NCBI GenBank assembly: GCA_963711085.1
Contig: CAVQCT010000002.1
Location: 1,227,678 to 1,291,677 of the forward strand
From: an uncultured candidate division Zixibacteria bacterium
GTDB taxonomy: Bacteria > Zixibacteria > MSB-5A5 > GN15 > FEB-12
Reading direction: 5' to 3'
Length of the DNA stretch: 64,000 bases
In this document: piece after piece, positions 4,015 through 51,501 of the stretch
Numbering within the stretch: the stretch's first letter is position 1
How the letters are laid out: every line of letters starts with the position of its first letter
Notes under the pieces: model-generated
Seen by the model: only the letters and a program-made list of their open reading frames with translations
Database searches by the model: none
What the model was told of the DNA's origin: nothing
Made by a program: the position numbers and the translations under genes

Positions 4015-5134
4015 CTAGGTCGAAACTTGAGCCTCTTTGAAGTTCGGATCGCTCAGGTATGCCTGAATGAACTGATCGATATCCCCATCCATGACCGCCT
4101 GGACATTCGAGGTCTCAGCGCCGGTTCGGTGATCCTTCACCATGTTGTAAGGATGGAAGACGTAGGAGCGGATCTGCGATCCCCATTCGATCTTCTTCTT
4201 GGACTGTTCGAACTTCTGCATTTTGGCGGCTTCTTCTTCTTTCTTCAGTTGATAGAGCCGCGCTTTGAGGACGCTGAACGCAGAATCCTTGTTCTTGTGC
4301 TGGCTGCGTTCAGTCTGACAGGTGACCACGATTCCGGACGGGATGTGAGTGATCCTGATCGCCGAAGAGGTCTTGTTAATATGCTGACCGCCGGCGCCGG
4401 AAGCGCGAAATGTATCTACCCGGACATCTTCTTCTTTGATTTCGATTTCGATATTGTCTTCGACAACGGGGAAGACGTGCACCGACACGAACGAGGTGTG
4501 CCGTCTTGAGTTGGCATCGAAGGGAGAAATGCGTACCAACCGATGTACCCCCGACTCCGCTTTGAGGAATCCGTAGGCGAAATCCCCTTTGATCTTCAGC
4601 GTGGCCGACTTGAGACCGGCTTCGTCCCCCGGCTGAAGATCCATCAATTCGACCGTGAAAGACTTACGCTCCGCCCACCGGTTGTACATCCGGAACAGCA
4701 TGTCGGCCCAGTCCTGGGATTCGGTGCCGCCGGCGCCGGGGTGGATGGTAAGAATGGCGTCGCGATAGTCATCGGGACCGGAAAGGAGGGAGGTGAACTC
4801 AAAGTCGCTGACTTCCTTGACGACCTGCTCGTACGTTTGCTTTAGTTCGTCGGCATCCTCGGATTCCTCATCGCTCACCATTTCAAGCAATTCGCTGACC
4901 GTCTGCAAATCGGACTTCAGTTTGCCGTACGATGCGACCCATTTGCGATGGACGGAGACCTCTTTGAGGATAGCCTGGGCGGCCTGATTATCATCCCAGA
5001 AGGCAGGTGCGGAGGTAAGCTTCTCGAGTTCGGCTATGCGGACTTGACGACCTTCAATGTCAAAGATACCTCGCTAGTTTGTCGAGTTTCTCTTTGTAGT
5101 CAGGAAGTTGGTACTTTATATCCGCCAGCAACAT
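4015..5134 (-). CDS. prfB: Peptide chain release factor 2, requires programmed +1 frameshift
   Basis: The track ORF 4015..4908 contains the GGQ motif (SGAGGQHINK) and the RF2 SPF motif (RISPFD). ATG at 5134 with a GGAGAGG SD is followed by 24 codons and an in-frame TGA at 5062..5060. The +1 frame from 5061 joins the track ORF, giving ~372 aa. Confidence 0.9.
5059..5075 (-). promoter_or_regulatory. prfB autoregulatory +1 frameshift site (GCG AGG TAT CTT TGA C)
   Basis: The minus strand reads AGG TAT CTT TGA C, the same slippery CUU-UGA-C core with upstream SD-like AGG as the E. coli prfB site. Confidence 0.85.
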
Positions 5135-6014: not shown

Positions 6015-6861
6015 AAATATCAAAATTGAGCCGCTTCATCTGGAAGGCGTAACGGACTACCACTGTCATTGCGATTATTCGCCCGATGCCGAAGGAAGTA
6101 TCGAGCAGTATTGCGAGGCGGCACTGGATCGTAATCTGGCCGAGATCTGTTTCACCACGCACTACGACGCCAATCCGAAGCTTGAAGGTACGAAGACCGG
6201 CATCCGGATTAACGGTGAGATCAAGTCGGTTACGCCGGATAATCTGGCTGCGTATGTCGAAGACGTGGCGCGGGCAGGTCAGAAGTTTTATCCGCTCGGG
6301 CTTTCGGTCAAGTGCGGAGTTGAGTTCGGCTGGTTTGAAGGATGCGAAGACCAGGCGCTCAAATTGCGCGAGCGATTCGGCTTCAGCTATATGCTGTGCG
6401 GCATCCACGAGATCGACAACATGTGCATCGTTTGCCACTCCACTTACGAGAAGGCATTCGCCGGGTACTCGGCCGAACAGCTTGTCGAGAAGTACTTCGC
6501 CCAGGCGGTCAAGGCTGCGCGCACCGGTATATTCGACAATATTGCGCACCTCGACTACTACGTGAAATACGGAAAGCGATATTACGGAGAGCCGATCGAC
6601 AACGCCCACGAACCGTATATCAACGAATTATTCAAAGCCCTCGTCGAAAGTCGGAGGACCGGTATCGAAGTGAACACAGCGGGGATGCGTCACGGCCGCG
6701 GAATGTACTACCCAAGCATGGAAATCATCAATCTCGCCAAGAAGGCGGGAGTGTCCGTCCAGGTGCTGGGGTCAGACGCGCACAAGCCGGAACAGGTGGG
6801 ATACGATTTCGAAATGGCAACTTCGCTGATTCCCGACACCGTACAAGGATGCCTCGACTGA
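6007..6861 (+). CDS. PHP-domain phosphoesterase (HisJ-type histidinol phosphatase family)
   Basis: 284-aa ORF with the DYHCHCDYSPDA N-terminal PHP motif and later GSDAH. TTG start preceded by AAAGGAA. Confidence 0.7.
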   Translation: MSENIKIEPLHLEGVTDYHCHCDYSPDAEGSIEQYCEAALDRNLAEICFTTHYDANPKLEGTKTGIRINGEIKSVTPDNLAAYVEDVARAGQKFYPLGLSVKCGVEFGWFEGCEDQALKLRERFGFSYMLCGIHEIDNMCIVCHSTYEKAFAGYSAEQLVEKYFAQAVKAARTGIFDNIAHLDYYVKYGKRYYGEPIDNAHEPYINELFKALVESRRTGIEVNTAGMRHGRGMYYPSMEIINLAKKAGVSVQVLGSDAHKPEQVGYDFEMATSLIPDTVQGCLD

Positions 6862-7472
6862 TAACGCCGGGCAATCAGGTGCACTCGACAATCAGAACAC
6901 ATAAGAAACTGAGACGGTCTTTCTACGATCGGCCGACTCTTGAAGTCGCTCGGGAGATCATCGGGAAACACCTGGTGTACCATGCTCCGGAAGGAACGAT
7001 GTCGGCGCGGATAGTTGAGACCGAAGCATATATCGGGCAGGATGATGCCGCCTGCCATGCGGCAAGAGGAAAGACGGAGCGAAATGAGGTGATGTTCGGG
7101 CAACCGGGTTTCACCTATATCTATTTCATCTACGGCATGTACTACTGCCTGAATGTCGTGACGGAGTCGATCGGCCAGCCGGCGGCGGTACTGATACGAG
7201 CAGCCGAACCGGTAGTGGGGACGGACCTGATGTTGCTACACTCGGCGGGAAAGAAACCGCTCGACCTTCTTTCGGGACCGGGAAAGTTCTGCCGCTCTTT
7301 CGGGCTGACCCGGGAGCAGAATGGGCTCGATTTGACCGGTGATGTTATTTATCTCGAAGAGCACTCGAGTCGACCAGTCAGCATCAAGACATCGCCGCGC
7401 ATCGGCATTAACCAGGCCACGGAACATCCGTGGCGTTTTGTTGACGCTGATACAAAAGTGAAATTGAAATAA
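6849..7472 (+). CDS. DNA-3-methyladenine glycosylase (Mpg/AAG family)
   Basis: C-terminal 207 aa of track ORF 6342..7472. FYDRPTLEVAREIIGK, ARIVETEAYIGQDDAACHA and GFTYIYFIYGMYYCLNVV match the Mpg family. ATG at 6849 overlaps the end of the PHP gene. Confidence 0.8.
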   Translation: MPRLITPGNQVHSTIRTHKKLRRSFYDRPTLEVAREIIGKHLVYHAPEGTMSARIVETEAYIGQDDAACHAARGKTERNEVMFGQPGFTYIYFIYGMYYCLNVVTESIGQPAAVLIRAAEPVVGTDLMLLHSAGKKPLDLLSGPGKFCRSFGLTREQNGLDLTGDVIYLEEHSSRPVSIKTSPRIGINQATEHPWRFVDADTKVKLK

Positions 7473-8988: not shown

Positions 8989-9618
8989 ATGTTTGGTCCC
9001 GACTTCTGGCAAAAAGCAATAATCGCCGCCCCCGCGATACTCTTCTCGCTGACTGTGCATGAGTATTTCCACGCCTGGACGGCCCTGAGATTCGGGGACA
9101 CCACTGCCCGTGATCTGGGACGGCTGACGCTCAATCCGCTGGCTCATCTTGATGTCCTGGGGACGATCATGATGTTCCTCTCCGGGTTCAGGTTCGGCTG
9201 GGCCAAACCGGTGCCGGTTAATCCGTTCAGGACGAAGAATCCTCGCGTAGCGGACTTCTGGATCTCCGCGGCCGGGCCCATTTCCAACTTTGGCCTCGCC
9301 TTCATCGCCAGCATGATCTTTCGGGCAATCGTGACGACAAATGCACCGATGCCCGAGGCAGTGCACCTGTTCCTGTTCTTCATGATCATGATCAATGTCT
9401 CGCTGGCCTTTTTCAATCTTATCCCGTTGTTCCCGCTCGATGGCTCCCACATTCTGAGGAGTATATTGCCACCCCGGTATGAAGCGTCGCTGAATCAATT
9501 CGACCGCTTTTCACCGTTCATCCTGCTCGGTCTGATCATGATCGGCGGGTTCTGGTTTATCCTCGGTCCATTCATTTCCGCCGTTGTCTACATTTTTTCC
9601 GGAATCCGGATAGGTTAA
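8989..9618 (+). CDS. Site-2 protease family zinc metalloprotease (peptidase M50)
   Basis: 209-aa polytopic ORF with HEYFHAW (HExxH) and NLIPLFPLDG motifs. GAGGAG SD. Confidence 0.8.
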   Translation: MFGPDFWQKAIIAAPAILFSLTVHEYFHAWTALRFGDTTARDLGRLTLNPLAHLDVLGTIMMFLSGFRFGWAKPVPVNPFRTKNPRVADFWISAAGPISNFGLAFIASMIFRAIVTTNAPMPEAVHLFLFFMIMINVSLAFFNLIPLFPLDGSHILRSILPPRYEASLNQFDRFSPFILLGLIMIGGFWFILGPFISAVVYIFSGIRIG

Positions 9619-9619
9619 G

Positions 9620-10299
9620 ATGCTTCGAATAGTTCGAGTCATGGCATTTCTGCCGATCGCACTGATACTTGCATCGTGTGGTGGCGGCAAGATGGTACGG
9701 GTTGAGGGCGAACAAGCAGCGTGTGCCTGAATTCGACGTTCAAGTGGAGGCGTATCTGTTCGACGCGGTGGTACTTCGCGGGCAGAAACGTAATACCTTC
9801 CGTCTCGATGTTTATCAAACCGACTCGATTATGGCGCTCACCGGCCGGGGGTATTTGGGGAAAGGAGCGCTCAAGGGATGGATGACGCGAGACAGCATAA
9901 AAGTGTTATTCCCAGCGACTAATGAATACCTATACGAAACGATTCCGGCCCTTATCGGATCGATTGCATGCCTCGGTGATACGGCCGAGATAAATATGTT
10001 TGCGCTGTTCAGCGCGCTGCCCGACAGCATCGCACAGGACCGCCAGACGAGAGATTGAATCAGATTACTCCGATGCCGCGCAGCCGCAATTCAAGGTCTC
10101 ATATGCCGGTTGCCCCTGGGCTCTCAGCGCGACCTACGATCGACAGGATGCCGGATGGCGCGTCAAGGAGTTCCAATTCGACGATGGTCACGGCAACCAG
10201 CTCTCCGGAAAGCGAAGGATCTACAAGGGTCACGCCACCGTCCCGTCGGGCCGCTTTCAAATCATCGTCCCCGCTTCGTATGCTCGCATAATCCCCTGA
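9620..10299 (+). pseudogene. Lipoprotein (DUF4292/LolB-like) split over three reading frames
   Basis: ATG 9620 encodes a signal peptide plus lipobox (MAFLPIALILASC) and then hits TGA at 9728..9730. The body continues in track ORF 9669..10058 and the tail in track ORF 10000..10299. The 680-nt total equals 3n+2, meaning two +1 shifts. Confidence 0.55.
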
Positions 10300-10378
10300 T
10301 TGTCACGCGGTTATACCCGTTGACTTGCCACCCTGAATTATCGATATTACTTTCTTGTATTTAATTAGGAGTATCTGA

Positions 10379-12278
10379 GTGAACCTGTACAAGAGATCGT
10401 TTTCGGTCCTCTGGCCATATTGGAAGCAACTGACCACAGCTTCGGTGTCGGCGGCCCTCAACGCCATTTTTTCCGGGCTGATGGTCTGGATGTTCGGGCC
10501 GTTGTTGATGACTCTCTTTCAGGTGAACAACCTTCCGATCGTCGGCTCTGCCGCCTCGCCGTCAGACTCAAATAGTTATCCCGGCCGATACCAGCTTGGT
10601 GAATCAGACCGGTTTCATGGCTGCTCTTACCCGGACAGCAGCGGAGATACGCGAGACAATGAAGGGCTGGGTTGACGCTATCGTCTCGGGTGCGGACAGG
10701 AAGCAGACGCTTATCCGTTTCTGTTGGGCGATTCTGCTCGTCGTCATAGCAAAGAATCTTTTCCTGTACTTGCAGGGGTTCTTCATGGCATTTGTCCAAC
10801 AGTCGGTCGTGCGACATTTTCGTGACCGATTGTTCGAAAAGTATCAGCGATTGTCGCTCGATTACTTCCATTCGCGAAGAACCGGACAGATAATCTCGCG
10901 GGTGACCAACGATGTCATGGTACTCAACGAATCGATCGACCTTGGCTTCAACCGACTGGTAACCGACTCCATTACCGTGCTCGTGTTTTTCTTTTTCCTG
11001 ATCGTGCTGAGCTGGAAGCTTACCCTGCTGGCCATGATCATCCTGCCGGTGATTTTTGGATTCATCTGGTACATAGGGAAGAAGCTCCGCAAGTATTCCG
11101 AGCGATCCCAGGAGCGGATGTCCGATGTGAATTCAGTCCTTGAGGAATCGGTCAGCAATATCCGGATTGTCAAAGCGTTCTCGATGGAGAATTTCGAAAT
11201 CAAGAAATTCTTTGCCGCGACTTACAACTATTTTCGCGCGCTGCTTCGCATGACGCGAATTCGCCATCTGGCCTCGCCGATAAACGACACGCTCGCCACG
11301 ATCGCAGGAGTCATCATCCTGCTCTATGCCGGCAGCAAGATAGTGGCCGGGACGGGGGAGTTCGACGCCGGTGATTTTATGACGTATCTGCTGGCGATGT
11401 TCTCGATGATCAAGCCGGTCAAATCGCTTAGCCAGATTCATATCAAACTTCAGGAAGGTATGGCAGCCTCTGTGCGTATCTTTGAAGTACTCGATGCGGA
11501 CGAGAAAATTGGGAATGCGATCGATGCCCGGACGCTGACTTCATTCGAGAAGTCAATAGAATATCGCGGCGTGACTTTCAGCTACAATGGCTCCGATACG
11601 ATCCTCAAAGATGTATCTTTCACGGTCGAGCGCGGACAGGTGATTGCATTTGTCGGACCCTCGGGAGGAGGGAAGTCGACATTGCTCGACCTGCTGCCGA
11701 GATTCTATGATCCGCAGCAGGGGAGTATCGTCATTGACGGATATGATATCCGGAACGTCACCCTTGAATCACTTCGTTCGCTTATGGGGATCGTGACACA
11801 GGAGACCTACCTGTTTAACGATACGGTTTTCAATAACATCGCCTATGGCCTTGCCGATGTGGACAAGCAGAAGGTGATCGAAACGGCGAAGATGGCCAAC
11901 GCCCATGACTTTATTCAGGAGCTTGAGAACGGGTATGACACTCAGGTCGGCAATCGGGGAGTCAAGCTGTCCGGCGGACAACGCCAGCGCCTGGCAATTG
12001 CGCGAGCGTTGCTTAAAGATCCCCAGATTCTCATATTCGATGAAGCTACATCGGCGCTTGATACCGAGTCCGAGGTTCTGGTACAGGAGGCAATCGACCG
12101 CCTGATGAGGAACCGTACCTCGCTGGTCATCGCACACCGCCTTTCAACGATTAAGAACGCTGACCGGATTATTGTGATCGACCGGGGCCGAATGGTCGAG
12201 TGCGGAACGCACGAAGCTTTACTGGAAACGAACGGCCTGTACGCCCGGCTGTATTCCATGCAATTCAGGGATATTTGA
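10379..12278 (+). pseudogene. msbA: MsbA-like lipid A/ABC exporter (fused TMD-NBD), frame-disrupted between TM1 and TM2
   Basis: ORF 10379..10675 encodes a typical exporter N-terminus and TM1 (LWPYWKQL...). ORF 10596..12278 encodes TM2-6 plus the NBD (Walker A GPSGGGKST, LSGGQRQR, Walker B ILIFDEATSALD). The frames overlap in 10527..10675. This could be an assembly indel rather than a true pseudogene. Confidence 0.75.
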
Positions 12279-13397
12279 TGAATATCGCATTCCTTGACTC
12301 AATCGAGACGACTACCTACGGTGGAATGGAAGAATGGATCCGGTTGGTGGCCGAAGGTCTGAAGGCGCGAGGGCACGCGATAACCGTGATTGGCCGATCC
12401 GGTTCGAAGTTCCTTGAACGGGTTATGGCCGCGAAGTCTGGAATTGCCGTGGAGGCAATCCGAATCGCCGGCGATTTCGACCCGGTTACCATCTCCAAAC
12501 TTAAGCGGATACTCTCCGAAAAGAAAATCGACCTGTTGTCGGTGAACTTCAACAAGGATGTCCGACTCGGCGGCCTGGCTGCCCTGTTCAATGGAAATAC
12601 CCGGGTTATCTGGTCGCTCGGCATGAATATTACCGAGTGATAAGGCTGTTCATCGATGGCTTACCCCGAAGCTGGTCAGCGGGGTGATCGTGCCATCACA
12701 GGCACTTAAGAATGAAATTGTAGCTTCGGGATATATCGAGCCGGACTCGGTGGAAGTAATTCCGATCGGCATTCCGGACGCTGCCGATTTATCCGACCAT
12801 AAGATTGCCCGAGAGCATTTGTTATCTGAATTTGGATTACCTTCAGACAGTATTATCGCTGTGACGGTTGGCAGATATGTCGAGCACAAGGGTCATCGCT
12901 ATCTGATTGCGGCTGCGAAGGAGATCGTCCGCAAGCTGCCGGCAATCCGATTTCTCTTTCTCGGTGATGGTCCGTTGGAATCCGATCTCAAAAGACAAAT
13001 TGAGAGCGCAGGACTGGAAAACTATTTCCTGTTGGCTGGAATGCGCTCCGATGTCGCTGAGCTGCTCCCCGGAGTCGATCTGATGATACATCCGTCGATT
13101 CAGGAGCCGTTCGGCATCGCCGTTCTCGAAGGGATGCGGGCGGGACTGCCGGTGGTGGCCAGCCGGATCGGCGGGATTCCGGAAGTAGTGGCTGAAGGTG
13201 TGACGGCAATTTTGTGCGAGGCCGCTGACCCGTTCCGGTTGGCGAGTGCAGTGCTTGAAGCGGGTATGAATCGTTCCCAGATGTCGTCAATGGGGAAGGC
13301 TGGAAGACAACGATGGAGCGAATCGTTCAGGTATGAACATATGATCGAGCGGGTGGAAGAAAGCTTCAGAAGGCAGGTGCGAATACATGAAGTTTGA
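12278..13397 (+). pseudogene. GT4 family glycosyltransferase, frame-disrupted between N- and C-terminal Rossmann domains
   Basis: The N-domain ORF (true ATG 12278, overlapping the msbA stop) ends at TGA 12638..12640. The C-domain (EPFGIAVLEGMRAGLPVV, an E-x7-E-like GT4 motif) continues in the +1 frame, which is open only from 12627. Confidence 0.75.
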
Positions 13398-14508
13398 TCG
13401 CCTCAAACCGCTCGAACACAAATTCAAGGCGTTTTTCTTCCAGGTGTGCCGCTCGTTCCTGAAGAAAGGACAGAAGGACTTCGTCCCGCTCGATGGGAAC
13501 AAAATTAAAAAAGTGCTCTTCCTCCGTCCTGAAAAGATCGGTGATATGGTCATTTCGTTTCCGGTGTTCGATGGTCTCCGTGCCCGCTTTCCGCATATCA
13601 AAATCGCCATTCTCGGGTCGCCTACTAATTTCCAGATCATCAGGAATGACCCCCGCTTCGACAAAGTCTATATCTATCGCAAGAGCCCGTTACATGACAT
13701 TAAAGAGCTCATGGCGATGCGTCGGGAGAAGTACGACTGCGTGGTCGATATGATCGGGAACGACTCGGTCACTGCCCTGTTTATGTCTCAACTTTGCGCC
13801 CCAGGCAAACCGCGGATCGGCGTCGGCAAGGTCAAGTATCGCGAGTACTACGATTTCAACTACGACCATCGCATGGGAAACACGGGACATATCATAGAAA
13901 ATACCTTACGACTGCTGGACGCCTTCGCGATCGACAGCACCAGGGTCTCCGGCTATGCCACGCCGTATCTTGAAAGGCAAGAGATCGATCAGGCGCAGCG
14001 GTTCATTTCAAGTCTGGACGGCTCAGGACAACAGACGTTCAAAGTAGGATTCAACATGTCGGCCGGATCGCCAACCCGAATGTGGGCTGAGGAGAAGGCC
14101 ATCGAGTTGCTCAAACGAATAGTGCAGCATTATGACAACTGCCGCATTATCCTGTTCACCATTCCACCGGAAAGAAAACGGGCAGAGAAACTTCGGCAGC
14201 TACTTAACGGTGATGTCGAGCTGGTGCCTGACGGTCTGTCATTGGCCGGCGCGGCGGCCATCATCAAGCATCTCGATATCCTCATTTCCCCTGATACCTC
14301 GCTGGTTCATATTGCCCGGTCATTCAGAGTACCGGTCGTTGGACTGTACAGCCGGTATATGAAGAATTTTCTCTTGTGGCGCCCGTACGATCAAGCGACC
14401 GGTGCGGTGGTTTCCGGCAACGACGACAACATCTTTGATATCACGGTGGACCAGGTGTTCGACACGTTCAGTACGGTACTGAAACAAGAACTGGAGGCGA
14501 AGCATTGA
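13387..14508 (+). CDS. GT9 family glycosyltransferase (LPS heptosyltransferase-like)
   Basis: 373-aa ORF. N-terminal KVLFLRPEKIGDMV and C-terminal SPDTSLVHIA motifs are typical of RfaC/RfaF-type GT9. Confidence 0.8.
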   Translation: MKFDRLKPLEHKFKAFFFQVCRSFLKKGQKDFVPLDGNKIKKVLFLRPEKIGDMVISFPVFDGLRARFPHIKIAILGSPTNFQIIRNDPRFDKVYIYRKSPLHDIKELMAMRREKYDCVVDMIGNDSVTALFMSQLCAPGKPRIGVGKVKYREYYDFNYDHRMGNTGHIIENTLRLLDAFAIDSTRVSGYATPYLERQEIDQAQRFISSLDGSGQQTFKVGFNMSAGSPTRMWAEEKAIELLKRIVQHYDNCRIILFTIPPERKRAEKLRQLLNGDVELVPDGLSLAGAAAIIKHLDILISPDTSLVHIARSFRVPVVGLYSRYMKNFLLWRPYDQATGAVVSGNDDNIFDITVDQVFDTFSTVLKQELEAKH

Positions 14509-15272
14509 GGCCGCTTTCGGTAGTCATCATCACCAGGGACGAAGAACGCAATATCGGCAGGTGTCTGGAGTCTGTTTCCTGGGCCGATGATATCGTGCTG
14601 ATAGACAGCCAGTCGACCGATCGCACCCTGGAGATCGCTCAGAAACATGGCGCCAGAATTTTCTCCCCGGTCTGGAAAGGGTACGGGGTGGCGAAGCAGG
14701 AAGGAGTGGCCCAGGCGAGGTCTGACTGGATACTCTCGTTGGATGCCGATGAGGCAGTAACGCCGGAACTTGCCGAAGAGATCAAGTCGGTCCTGTCGGA
14801 CCCGAACCCCGCTTCGGGATACTTCCTGCCGCGACGTACGCAGTTTTTGGGACGATGGATCAAGCACTGCGGCTGGTATCCCGATCACATTCTCCGGCTG
14901 TTCGACCGGACGAAAGGTGGATTCACCGAGTCGGTCGTGCATGAGAAAGTGCTGGTGGACGGATCGACCGGATATTTGAAACACGATCTGCTTCACTTCA
15001 GCTATCCGTCGCTGGAAGATTATTTTCGCAAGTATAACAACTACACGACGCTGGGAGCTGAGGAAGCGTTCCGAAAGGGAGTGCGGGCCGGTTGGTTTGA
15101 CATCGTAATAAAACCTTACGTTGCTTTTCTAAAGCATTATATTGTCCGGCAAGGCTTTCGCGATGGCCTGGAAGGATTCCTGGTCTCTATTTTGTCCAGC
15201 TCGGCGGTAATGGTAAAATATGCCAAGCTTCGCGAAATCCAGCGAATGAAACGCAAAACAGGAACTGATTGA
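14505..15272 (+). CDS. GT2 family glycosyltransferase
   Basis: 255-aa ORF with SVVIITRDEERNI, a DxD-like LDADE motif and the GT-A fold pattern. It overlaps both neighbours by 4 nt. Confidence 0.8.
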   Translation: MRPLSVVIITRDEERNIGRCLESVSWADDIVLIDSQSTDRTLEIAQKHGARIFSPVWKGYGVAKQEGVAQARSDWILSLDADEAVTPELAEEIKSVLSDPNPASGYFLPRRTQFLGRWIKHCGWYPDHILRLFDRTKGGFTESVVHEKVLVDGSTGYLKHDLLHFSYPSLEDYFRKYNNYTTLGAEEAFRKGVRAGWFDIVIKPYVAFLKHYIVRQGFRDGLEGFLVSILSSSAVMVKYAKLREIQRMKRKTGTD

Positions 15273-16324
15273 ATATGCCACGTGTGATAGATTTGGAGCC
15301 GGGAGATCGGATCCTCATCAGTCGTACTGATCGGCTGGGAGACCTGGTTCTCGCCCTCCCTTTCGTTGAGACGATCAAAGCTCGCTACCCCGAGTGCCGG
15401 GTCGACGTGATCGCATCGCTCTATGCCTCGCCGATTCTCGAAAACAACGAGAGTGTCGGAAAGATTCTCCGCGTTCAGAACGATCAGCTGCTGGCCAATA
15501 AGCTGTACAAAAAGGATCTCCTCCAGAAAATCAAGAAGGAGAAGTACAAACTGGTGGTCGTGCTCTACCCGGAGCGGCAGATCTCAAGGCTGTTCTATGA
15601 CGCCGGCATTCCCACTCGGATTGGAACGGCCGGACGATTCCACTCGATCTTCTTCAACACTCATTTGATTCACAGTCGTAAGAAGAATCTGAAACACGAA
15701 TTCGAATATAATCTCGACTTTTTGAAGTTCTTCCATAAAGGCCCGAAGATAACTTTTTCCAAAGTGCACCTTCGCGATAAAGAACTCAACAACGCTCGCA
15801 GAATTCTTACTAACGCCGGAGTTGATGATCGCTTCATTGTCCTGCACCCGGGATCGGGTGGCTCAGCGGAATGCTGGCCGATGGAAAATTTCATCAGGCT
15901 GTACGAACTGCTCGACGAAAAAGGGGCCAATCCGGTCATTTCCGGGTCTGATCCGGAAGGAGCTATGATTACAGACGTTGCCCGGAAGCTGGGCGTGCCG
16001 ATCCGCAAAATTACCGGCGATACCGATCTGAGAACTCTTGCAGCCGTACTGTCGCTGGCCGAAGTAGTCGTGGCAAATTCCACCGGGCCATTACATTTGG
16101 CCGCTGCGGTCGATACCAAAGTGGTCGGGCTGTATCCGAGTCGCAAAGCGATGTCCCCGGTTCGCTGGGGTCCGATCGGTCGCAAAGGCCGGGTCATACA
16201 ACCGGAAGGGGTCGAGTGCCAGTGTCCGCACAAACAGTGCACGTGCATGTCGCTGATCACGCCGGGACAGGTGGCCGATGAAGTGCTGGCCATGTTCAAA
16301 AAGAAATACCGCAGCGAAGCATGA
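15269..16324 (+). CDS. GT9 family glycosyltransferase (LPS heptosyltransferase-like)
   Basis: 351-aa ORF with ILISRTDRLGDLVL and NSTGPLHLAAA motifs. Confidence 0.8.
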   Translation: MNMPRVIDLEPGDRILISRTDRLGDLVLALPFVETIKARYPECRVDVIASLYASPILENNESVGKILRVQNDQLLANKLYKKDLLQKIKKEKYKLVVVLYPERQISRLFYDAGIPTRIGTAGRFHSIFFNTHLIHSRKKNLKHEFEYNLDFLKFFHKGPKITFSKVHLRDKELNNARRILTNAGVDDRFIVLHPGSGGSAECWPMENFIRLYELLDEKGANPVISGSDPEGAMITDVARKLGVPIRKITGDTDLRTLAAVLSLAEVVVANSTGPLHLAAAVDTKVVGLYPSRKAMSPVRWGPIGRKGRVIQPEGVECQCPHKQCTCMSLITPGQVADEVLAMFKKKYRSEA

Positions 16325-44602: not shown

Positions 44603-46157
<1,555 letters not shown>

Positions 46158-46307
46158 TAAGGAGTAGGTGTGCTTGGATTCATACTGTGAATCCAACATT
46201 ACTTAGTCAACCGACATCGAAACAGTCTCCGACTCTTGATTTCTGTGGCTATTTATATAAATTTGTTCGCGTTTTATTTTCGGCGCGTGGGCAGAAAGTG
46301 TTTGATC

Positions 46308-46381
46308 GGGCCTATAGCTCAGTTGGTTAGAGCGCGCGCCTGATAAGCGCGAGGTCAGTGGTTCAACTCCACTTAGGCCCA
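46308..46381 (+). tRNA. tRNA-Ile (anticodon GAU)
   Basis: Cloverleaf by hand: acceptor GGGCCTA/TAGGCCC, anticodon loop CTGATAA, T-arm AGTGG-TTCAACT-CCACT. No encoded CCA. Confidence 0.95.
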
Positions 46382-46401
46382 TTGAAAAAGACAAGTTTAT
46401 C

Positions 46402-46474
46402 GGGGATGTAGCTCAGTTGGGAGAGCGGTGGCTTTGCAAGCCACAGGTCACCGGTTCGATCCCGGTCATCTCCA
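46402..46474 (+). tRNA. tRNA-Ala (anticodon UGC)
   Basis: Acceptor GGGGATG/CATCTCC (including the G3:U70 Ala identity pair), anticodon loop TTTGCAA, T-arm ACCGG-TTCGATC-CCGGT. Confidence 0.95.
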
Positions 46475-46654
46475 GTAAAGCAAATAAGAAGTGTATTGAC
46501 TTAAATACATAGACGCCACGCCCGGCGTGGGTCGACTGCTCTTTGACAACTTCATAGTGTTTTTTTCTGATACGTCAGAAGTATCTTCCAATAGGCTGTA
46601 TCGTTGCAATAATACAGTATTAAAGATGCTCTTATGTTAACCAAATTAAAATTC

Positions 46655-49660
<3,006 letters not shown>

Positions 49661-49751
49661 ATAAATTTCTACAGAGAGAATCGGAAATACTATGCAGCGT
49701 GCAGCCTGTTGGGCGATGCTGAGTCATATCAGAAAACGCTATGAAAATATT

Positions 49752-49868
49752 CTCGGTGGCGATAGCGACGGGGTCACACCTGTTCCCATTCCGAACACAG
49801 CAGTTAAGCCCGTCTACGTCGATGGTACTACTCGGGAGACCGTGTGGGAGAGTAGAAAGCTGCCGGGT
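49752..49868 (+). rRNA. rrf: 5S ribosomal RNA
   Basis: CCTGTTCCCATTCCGAACACAG and GGTACTACTCGGGAGACCGTGTGGGAGAGTAG motifs. The terminal helix CTCGGTGGC/GCTGCCGGG pairs, including G-U wobbles. Confidence 0.9.
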
Positions 49869-49877
49869 TAAAATGAA

Positions 49878-49908
49878 CCCCTCTTGTGAAAACAAGAGGG
49901 GTTTTTTT
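49878..49908 (+). terminator. rrn operon Rho-independent terminator
   Basis: CCCCTCTTGT-GAAA-ACAAGAGGGG followed by T7. Confidence 0.8.
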
Positions 49909-49947
49909 GTGATTGCGAAAGGCGAGGCGAAATCCTATGATGAGTTT

Positions 49948-50753
49948 ATGAAAGGGTACAAGTTTCGAAATTGGGGCGAATGTTGCCACCGAAGGTTGCT
50001 GACTCACCGGGAAATATACTTCGCGTCGCCGAAGGAATTTAATGATCCTTTTGATTGTAGAATACCTCCGAGATATGACTTAGAGGACATTGACACTCTT
50101 CGGAATGTACTTACTTCAATGCGAGTCACCGGCCTGACCGGCTGGAATCATGCTCAAATTGACGCCGAAGTTCAAGAGAAAATCGATCTGATCAAAAATC
50201 CCGGTAGATACGAAGAGTGGGTGACAGAATCCTGCAAGATTTCGTAGGCGATGTAAGGGTGCTGTGTCTGGCTGGTAATTTGCGAAATGATCTCATGTGG
50301 CTAAATTACGCACAGTCGCATCAAGGATTCTGCGTTGAAATCGACATGGACATACTCAGGAATCATCTAAGGAACAAGTTTGAACCGTATCTAAATGGTG
50401 CGGATATCGTAGATTTCTCGGTAATCTATAGGGAAAACATGCCCATAATTCGGCCGGCGATTCTTGAGTCAGATGGCCAGCTGTTTGCGCCGATACAGTA
50501 TAAGTCGCTTGAATGGAGTTACGAAGAAGAATGGCGATTTGTGGTTTACGGAAAGATCGACTTCGATCCGAACCCTATCCCCGTGGATGCGATCACAAGG
50601 GTCCTCCTTGGATGTCAAATCAGCGAAGCACACCGGGATGAGATTATGAGTGTCGTAAGAAGAGAATTTCCTCATACATCAATTTTGCAGGCACGACGAA
50701 CACCGTACGATTTTGGATTGGCCTTTGACGATGTTACCGATGTGCGCTCATAG
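49948..50753 (+). pseudogene. DUF2971 family protein, frame-disrupted
   Basis: The N-part (MKGYKFRNW...EIYFASPKEFNDPFDCRIPP) and C-part (VRVLCLAGNLRNDLMWLNYAQSHQGFCVEI...KSLEWSYEEEWRF) carry DUF2971 hallmarks but lie in different frames. The switch window is 50208..50247. The track ORF's first ~70 codons overlap the 5S gene and terminator and are spurious. Confidence 0.6.
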
Positions 50754-50816: not shown

Positions 50817-51501
50817 GTAGGGCGGCCTCGTCTTCGAGCCCGCCATTCATCTTGTTTCGCCGATCCCGCAATCCCATCGGCTCACTCACCAAAATCCCCA
50901 ACGTACGATTGTGCCTCAACTCCCCAATTAGGTTGATATATCCCCCGCTTGAGATACAGATGAAACGAAGATAGCGTCCAATCGCCCGGCCCTCTCGTGT
51001 ATCCGTGCTTTACCGGATTGTAATGGACATAATCGAAATGCCTCTTGAAGTCTATTTCATCCCGGACAATGTGATCCCAATACCGTCCCTGCCAGATCGG
51101 TCCGGTTTGATGCGTCAGACTTCGCCATTTCATCCCGAATGAGTGTTTGATCGTACGAACGATTCGATTGGTGTCGCCGTCCGGGCAATTCATTGGCAAA
51201 TGGAAGTGGTCGGGGAGCACCGCCCAGGCAATCGGGTCAAAGGAAAACCGGCCCCGGGCGTGCCGGATCGATTTGTAAAGCAAGTCGCAGTGTTCGGTGA
51301 GCAACGGCCGGCGATCGGCCGTAACGCTTGTGACAAAACAGCACTGATTCGGAGCAAAATAGCGCAGGAGCTTCGACATGGGCGGATGATATGAATAGTC
51401 ACTGACAGGGGATGTCAGTGAAAATCAGGTTTCTCGGATTATTCCGGATATTCCTCTGGCACTTCCGTGAAACGGCGGGCTCGAAGACGAGGCCGCCCTA
51501 C
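50817..51501 (-). mobile_element. RAYT unit: Y1 (HUH) transposase gene bracketed by perfect 28-bp inverted REP copies
   Basis: GTAGGGCGGCCTCGTCTTCGAGCCCGCC at 50817..50844 is the exact reverse complement of 51474..51501. Confidence 0.75.
50882..51379 (-). CDS. REP-associated tyrosine transposase (RAYT; IS200/IS605 Y1 transposase-like)
   Basis: 165-aa ORF with the HUH motif (VLPDHFHLPM) and the catalytic Tyr region DYVHYNPVKHGY. Confidence 0.8.
   Translation of the reverse strand: MSKLLRYFAPNQCCFVTSVTADRRPLLTEHCDLLYKSIRHARGRFSFDPIAWAVLPDHFHLPMNCPDGDTNRIVRTIKHSFGMKWRSLTHQTGPIWQGRYWDHIVRDEIDFKRHFDYVHYNPVKHGYTRGPGDWTLSSFHLYLKRGIYQPNWGVEAQSYVGDFGE

Follow-up and report, generated by a model that had tools for sequence, protein, structure and literature searches.

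The window analysed here is a stretch of 64,000 nucleotides (nt) from the genome of an uncultured Zixibacteria bacterium, the source of which is a single metagenomic contig of 2,258,738 bp in the NCBI/ENA record. On its forward strand lie three adjacent envelope-biogenesis genes: a gene for a lipobox lipoprotein with a predicted LolA/LolB-type fold (9620..10299), a gene for an msbA-like ABC exporter with a GTG start (10379..12278) and a gene for a GT4 glycosyltransferase (12278..13397). None of the three can be read in a single frame. The lipoprotein gene is broken twice, msbA once between the first and second transmembrane segments (TM1 and TM2), and the GT4 gene once inside its N-terminal domain; after removal of two, one and one bases, respectively, they encode proteins of about 225, 632 and 372 amino acids (aa). 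We consider it probable that each of the four breaks reflects a single base wrongly inserted in the deposited consensus or assembly, and not biology.

The layout of the frames was established by reading window positions 9400-13200 and translating them in all three forward frames. The open reading frame (ORF) with the signal peptide and lipobox of the lipoprotein spans 9620..9730 (MLRIVRVMAFLPIALILASC...) and stops at the TGA at 9728-9730. The body of the protein is encoded in the next frame, which is open at 9666..10058 and ends with the TGA at 10056-10058, and the tail follows in the third frame, open at 9994..10299. In msbA, an N-terminal ORF containing TM1 (10379..10675) stops at the TGA at 10673-10675, and the remainder lies in the +1 frame, open at 10527..12278. 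The ATG of the GT4 gene at 12278 overlaps the msbA stop. Its first ORF ends at the TGA at 12638-12640, with a TAA as the next codon, and the +1 frame opens no earlier than 12627, so that the two frames overlap in ATATTACCGAGTGA. The gene lengths of 680, 1900 and 1120 nt leave remainders of 2, 1 and 1 on division by three. An initial annotation, made from the sequence alone, had described these frames, stop codons and remainders, and all of them were confirmed on rereading.

Are these pieces parts of interrupted genes, or are they small genes in their own right? All fragments are themselves ORFs, some with a potential start codon, as would be expected of independent genes. The relatives point the other way. 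Scanned against the GTDB species representatives, the msbA fragment led to Zixibacteria metagenome-assembled genomes (MAGs), the closest of which, here called L001 and L002, show 89% and 86% amino-acid identity. Both share with the window the gene order GDH, M50-like, lipoprotein, msbA, GT4, GT9, GT2, and in both the lipoprotein (~225 aa), msbA (632 aa) and GT4 (373 aa) are each encoded by one ORF. When their proteins are searched against the window with tblastn, they align over 3, 2 and 2 successive frames for lipoprotein, msbA and GT4, with contiguous coverage of the query. Pfam domains are likewise divided between fragments: positions 1-102 of the 170 of Glyco_transf_4 fall in the first GT4 fragment, and positions 127-167 together with Glycos_transf_1 in the second. 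In msbA, ABC_membrane (positions 23-271 of 274) and ABC_tran are both confined to the second fragment.

The same picture emerges from a broader set of 44 Zixibacteria loci, across which the three-gene string is conserved and intact. There, msbA is found in one frame in 37 loci, cut by a contig end in five and split in two (37 of the 39 uncut loci), and GT4 and the lipoprotein, too, are each encoded by one gene. GT4 is also in one frame in every full-length match from the JGI metagenomes. Homologues are full length throughout, those of the lipoprotein (n=63) measuring ~200-255 aa except for the window's own 126-aa fragment. The notion of independent small genes is thereby refuted, and we give it next to no credence. 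The initial annotation had proposed that three single genes are each interrupted, and had suggested orthologues and related genomes as a check; these return one gene each in L001, in L002 and in nearly all of the 44 loci, and the same breaks are absent from the relatives.

A search of 5.8 billion proteins returned one match of 100% identity, P0004 (539 aa), in a cluster of one, and this public gene call and a second one, P0125 (126 aa), are exactly the window's fragments; the breaks are therefore present in the deposited record. Neither the GTDB representatives, nor the 5.8-billion-protein search, nor the JGI metagenomes yielded another assembly of this species, and look-ups of the exact proteins of P0004 and two neighbouring genes came back empty. 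The best other identities are 89% (GTDB representatives) and 87-88% (protein search) for msbA, and 68% for GT4 (JGI metagenomes).

To place the junctions, window positions 9560-13420 were aligned with L001 and L002 using MAFFT (3.86 kb, three genomes), and single-base deletions were scored against the orthologue alignment. The alignment contains four internal indels only, all of them 1-nt insertions in the window. No indels separate L001 from L002, and compared with these two the window has no deletions, in-frame indels or nonsense substitutions. That the same skip of one base is needed at all four breaks, as had been claimed, is thus borne out by four insertions of one nucleotide each.

The first insertion falls within 9714..9728 (MAFFT ~9720; the open frames set hard bounds of 9669-9730), in a variable linker after the lipobox. 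For the second, deletion scoring and MAFFT give 10041..10051 (hard bounds 9994-10058), inside a loop of variable sequence and constant length between the conserved motifs LPDS and SDYSD. The third was placed by the same two approaches at 10537..10572 (hard bounds 10527-10675), in the loop between TM1 and TM2, which differs between Zixibacteria in both sequence and length. The fourth, also from deletion scoring and MAFFT, is an extra base in ACCGAG at 12633..12635. At this site the window reads ATT ACC G AGT GAT, and NITSDK, the reading of L002, is recovered when a C or the G is dropped; the corresponding sequences are ATTA-CGAGCGAT in L001 and ATAA-CCAGCGAT in L002. All four extra bases are on the forward strand as read. 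The real junctions are not located at the stop codons, the one in msbA preceding its stop by over 100 nt, and three of the four sites are within the most variable segments of their proteins.

What proteins do the repaired genes encode? The lipoprotein has the lipobox LASC with the cysteine at position 20. Neither the repaired protein nor its 63 homologues have a Pfam or NCBIfam match, the L001 orthologue has no Pfam match, and a sequence search of the PDB came back empty. The label 'DUF4292-like' that the protein had been given therefore finds no support in Pfam, be it in the repaired protein, in the orthologue or in the homologues. An AlphaFold2 model of the L001 orthologue (P0122, L001 9025-9702), with a pLDDT of 88, matches structures of LolA and LolB in Foldseek, among them LolB of Porphyromonas gingivalis (9tpm), with E ~4e-7 and TM-scores of 0.5-0.68. 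In the related Zixibacteria loci examined the lipoprotein gene is directly upstream of msbA. From lipobox, modelled fold and position, the protein is best described as a candidate LolB-like lipoprotein. LolB homologues outside Proteobacteria have been recognised only recently (PMC11885536, PMC13103446).

The repaired exporter matches TIGR02203 (MsbA_lipidA) over positions 2-572 of 572 with 558.9 bits, which is under the equivalog cut-off of 602 bits. Its function as MsbA is suggested by this family match in combination with the neighbourhood of lipopolysaccharide (LPS) genes. The MsbA-like proteins of Zixibacteria are ~632 aa long, compared with the 572 positions of TIGR02203, and contain an extra loop of ~50 aa between TM1 and TM2. 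This loop (window 10520-10700, residues ~45-105) has a variable first half and a conserved MKGWVD motif, and holds the third insertion site. The third protein belongs to GT4 by its Glyco_transf_4 N-domain and Glycos_transf_1 C-domain, found across the two fragments.

Beyond these three genes the window is nearly free of frame breaks. Compared with the ORFs of six relatives, real genes within window 1-22 kb have no further frame split. Directly downstream, the genes for a GT9 heptosyltransferase, a GT2 and a further GT9 of LPS-core type (13387..16324, forward strand) are intact, with full-length Pfam/NCBIfam coverage, and unsplit compared with relatives. Among the ORFs in 20-64 kb that have a Pfam domain no domain is split and coverage is mostly complete; several other ORFs there have no match. 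In the other ~45 kb of predicted coding sequence the only frame break to be detected affects a DUF2971 gene, at ~50.2 kb. This gene (49741..50753, forward strand) consists of the ORFs 49741..50247 and 50217..50753 in different frames, is split in the -1 direction at ~50208-50247, carries its Pfam domain (1-89/89) in the second piece and is directly downstream of the 5S rRNA. Hence the statement that essentially all other housekeeping genes of the window read through cleanly, save for prfB and the DUF2971 gene, proved correct, with the addition that the latter break has the opposite direction. When breaks were placed uniformly over ~52 kb of coding sequence in a simulation, the probability that four of four fall within 2.9 kb was 7e-4, and that four of five do so 3e-3. 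The four breaks are clustered more than expected by chance.

If the genes had been inactive for a considerable timespan, their sequences should tell. The window's share of nonsynonymous divergence (dN), estimated on three-taxon branches, is 0.26-0.29 in the three genes and 0.19-0.36 in ten intact flanking genes, and the window, L001 and L002 are all equally distant from the outgroup L003. Amino-acid changes unique to one lineage number 74:54:141 (window:L001:L002) in the three genes and 212:180:434 in 14 flanking genes, which corresponds to window shares of 0.275 and 0.257 (Fisher p 0.48-0.58). At columns that are invariant in 11 relatives, the window deviates at two of 407 in the three genes, namely H28N in TM1 of msbA (window 10460) and P315A in GT4 (window 13221), and at 12 of 1480 in the flanks. 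The interrupted genes show no decay and no detectable relaxation of constraint. Synonymous divergence among these genomes has reached saturation (dS above 1); together with the replacement counts this leads to an estimate that any period of neutral evolution would have lasted at most ~2% of the terminal branch.

One way in which intact proteins might still be made from such genes is recoding, that is, programmed +1 ribosomal frameshifting, quadruplet decoding or transcript slippage that restores the frame. The need for the same +1 correction at all four breaks would fit this idea. Yet the four permitted ranges have no in-frame codon or quadruplet in common, and there is no slippery or stop-adjacent site such as the CTT TGA C of the window's own prfB. 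The msbA junction, more than 100 nt away from its stop codon, is also at odds with such a site. Neither are there homopolymers or repeats at the sites that could support slippage, the window has no tRNAs other than two ordinary ones, for Ile and Ala, and the breaks are not conserved, the orthologues in relatives being plain single ORFs. We regard recoding as highly improbable. The initial annotation had come to the same view of programmed slippage, and its conclusion stands. Its argument from the P-site codons was misplaced, as it was applied at the stop codons, where the frames do not change. Repeat-mediated phase variation was considered as well and rejected, as neither homopolymers nor short tandem repeats nor other simple-sequence tracts are present at the four sites. 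Both recoding and phase variation are thus rejected because slippery sites, shared codons or quadruplets and repeats are missing, and because the breaks are absent from relatives. A hunt by eye for motifs around the sites (CGAG, CCG) gave nothing beyond what multiple testing would lead one to expect.

How common are frame splits in comparable assemblies? In the other MAG loci they are sporadic and assembly-specific, with ~7 in ~690 kb, or roughly one per 100 kb, across the 44 loci. One locus, L029 (CAVTJJ010000006.1, MFD05942.bin.1.404 contig_671), has two +1 splits 500 nt apart, at ~6537-6575 and 7068-7076, in adjacent housekeeping genes for an MBL-fold hydrolase and a PHP phosphoesterase that are intact in relatives. 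From its MFD isolate name and the 'contig_' in its contig name we take it to be, presumably, a long-read assembly. Isolated splits occur in L035 (~2600 and ~5900), L040 (~4300), L013 (~20900) and L018 (~5700); those of L035, a contig of 5.4x coverage with two splits, and of L040 include msbA.

What remains is the choice between an error of the consensus and a real mutation, the two alternatives that the initial annotation had held to be realistic and that our analysis supports as such; the absence of decay and the insertion-only spectrum lean to error. The breaks are single-base indels specific to one assembly in otherwise conserved genes, which is how errors of this kind are recognised, and error is favoured because the genes otherwise look fully functional. 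The placement of three of the four sites in variable segments fits a consensus that was miscalled over differing strains. Breakage of gene calls by indels in a long-read consensus is well documented (PMC9262707; bioRxiv 10.1101/2021.08.23.457338). The source here, a megabase metagenomic contig that spans an rRNA operon, is a type of assembly where leftover indels do this, and the sporadic, assembly-specific splits in other MAGs likewise favour error. If error is indeed the explanation, it would be confined to a patch of ~3 kb in an otherwise accurate long metagenomic contig, and the organism itself would carry the LolB-like lipoprotein, MsbA and GT4 transferase as intact single genes. The cause might be a consensus called poorly in this patch, because effective coverage was low or because strain variants of a variable envelope locus were assembled together; residual non-homopolymer indels would then survive polishing there.

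The competing possibility is that the insertions are real and very recent frameshifts, which inactivate the LolB-like lipoprotein, msbA and GT4 in the population or in its dominant strain, with a paralogue or an altered envelope having to compensate. We consider this unlikely, though it ranks second among the explanations. It is in line with the presence of the breaks in the deposited record, with their significant clustering in adjacent, functionally related genes and with the clean state of the remaining contig sequence examined, even at homopolymers. Flavobacterium johnsoniae, moreover, is viable without any LolA or LolB (PMC11885536). Speaking against it are the constraint on the genes, which leaves, by estimate, no more than about 2% of the terminal branch for the inactivation, and the need for four independent indels without any other lesion in so short a time. 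Real indel mutations in bacteria are biased towards deletions and homopolymers, so that four insertions out of four, none of them in a homopolymer, would be an unusual spectrum for mutation. Both the neighbouring LPS-core genes (GT9, GT2, GT9) and those of the Mla system are intact, and MsbA is normally essential in diderms that produce LPS. No msbA paralogue is encoded within the 64 kb, the only other match being MlaF with 38% identity. That the population has just lost the LolB-like lipoprotein, its only nearby msbA and the core GT4 together is, in our view, quite doubtful.

Several observations nevertheless weigh against consensus error. Since the collections searched contain no second assembly of the same species, the intact allele has not been seen directly. 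The sites are not homopolymers, with the longest run in any site range being 2-3 bases, and elsewhere in the window the frame is kept at every one of 115 homopolymers of 5-7 bases in coding sequence; therefore this is not the classical homopolymer error of long reads, and outside the breaks the contig is accurate. An extra local cause would, moreover, be needed for the clustering (p ~7e-4 to 3e-3). Lastly, at positions invariant in four relatives, window-specific replacements are in local excess in the three genes, with 23 of 1225 vs 25 of 3509 in the flanks (Fisher p=0.0015). This excess spares strictly invariant sites and is not reproduced with 11 relatives or in the full relative-rate count, and it deserves little weight. 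Taken with these reservations, insertion error in the deposited sequence remains the explanation that we think probable.

A few further features of the window can be recorded. A complete rRNA operon lies inside the contig, at window 44603-49868, with 16S, tRNA-Ile GAT, tRNA-Ala TGC, 23S and 5S, and the GC skew is strongly positive across 44-50 kb. Adjoining the DUF2971 gene is an ORF on the reverse strand (50882-51379) that by eye resembles a Y1/REP-associated transposase (HFHLPMN, YVHYNP); it has no Pfam match at 1e-4.

At face value, the breaks would suggest that an essential flippase for lipid A has been lost, and any gene count, completeness estimate or metabolic reconstruction of this Zixibacteria genome would be skewed by them. 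The three genes deserve to be repaired or flagged by annotators, and the main value of the case is one of caution. If the insertions were real after all, the locus would be a rare snapshot of the simultaneous and very recent inactivation of envelope-biogenesis genes, in a viable diderm lineage that dispenses with, or reroutes, lipid A export and lipoprotein insertion. As a more lasting by-product, the conserved lipoprotein upstream of msbA in Zixibacteria, with its modelled LolB-type fold, may extend the spread of LolB-like proteins beyond Proteobacteria and Bacteroidota, as a candidate LolB-like receptor in a further phylum of the FCB group.

Several known systems invite comparison. The programmed frameshift of prfB (RF2) has the +1 direction in common with the four breaks, and a genuine case is found in the same window: the gene (4015..5134, reverse strand) has the canonical site CTT TGA C at 5065-5059, where a 25-codon ORF0 ends in TAT CTT TGA C with GCGAGG upstream, and the orthologue alignment is in frame downstream. 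The four breaks differ from it in that they have no site of the CUU UGA type, no upstream Shine-Dalgarno stimulator and no conservation. Phase-variable contingency genes for LPS and glycosyltransferases are similar as envelope and LPS genes that are switched off by a frame change of 1 nt; they differ by their simple-sequence repeats, which are absent at all four sites. Young bacterial pseudogenes share with the three genes frameshifts relative to intact orthologues and premature stops, but here there is no relaxed selection, no deletion, no further lesion and no decay of neighbouring pathway genes. Consensus errors of long-read or low-coverage assemblies, the targets of IDEEL and proovframe, usually look different in that the present breaks are non-homopolymer and confined to ~3 kb, with the window's homopolymers correct. 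What they have in common with the breaks are assembly-specific single-base indels in conserved genes, on a metagenomic contig of megabase scale. The two splits of L029 offer a parallel case of clustered breaks in the same direction.

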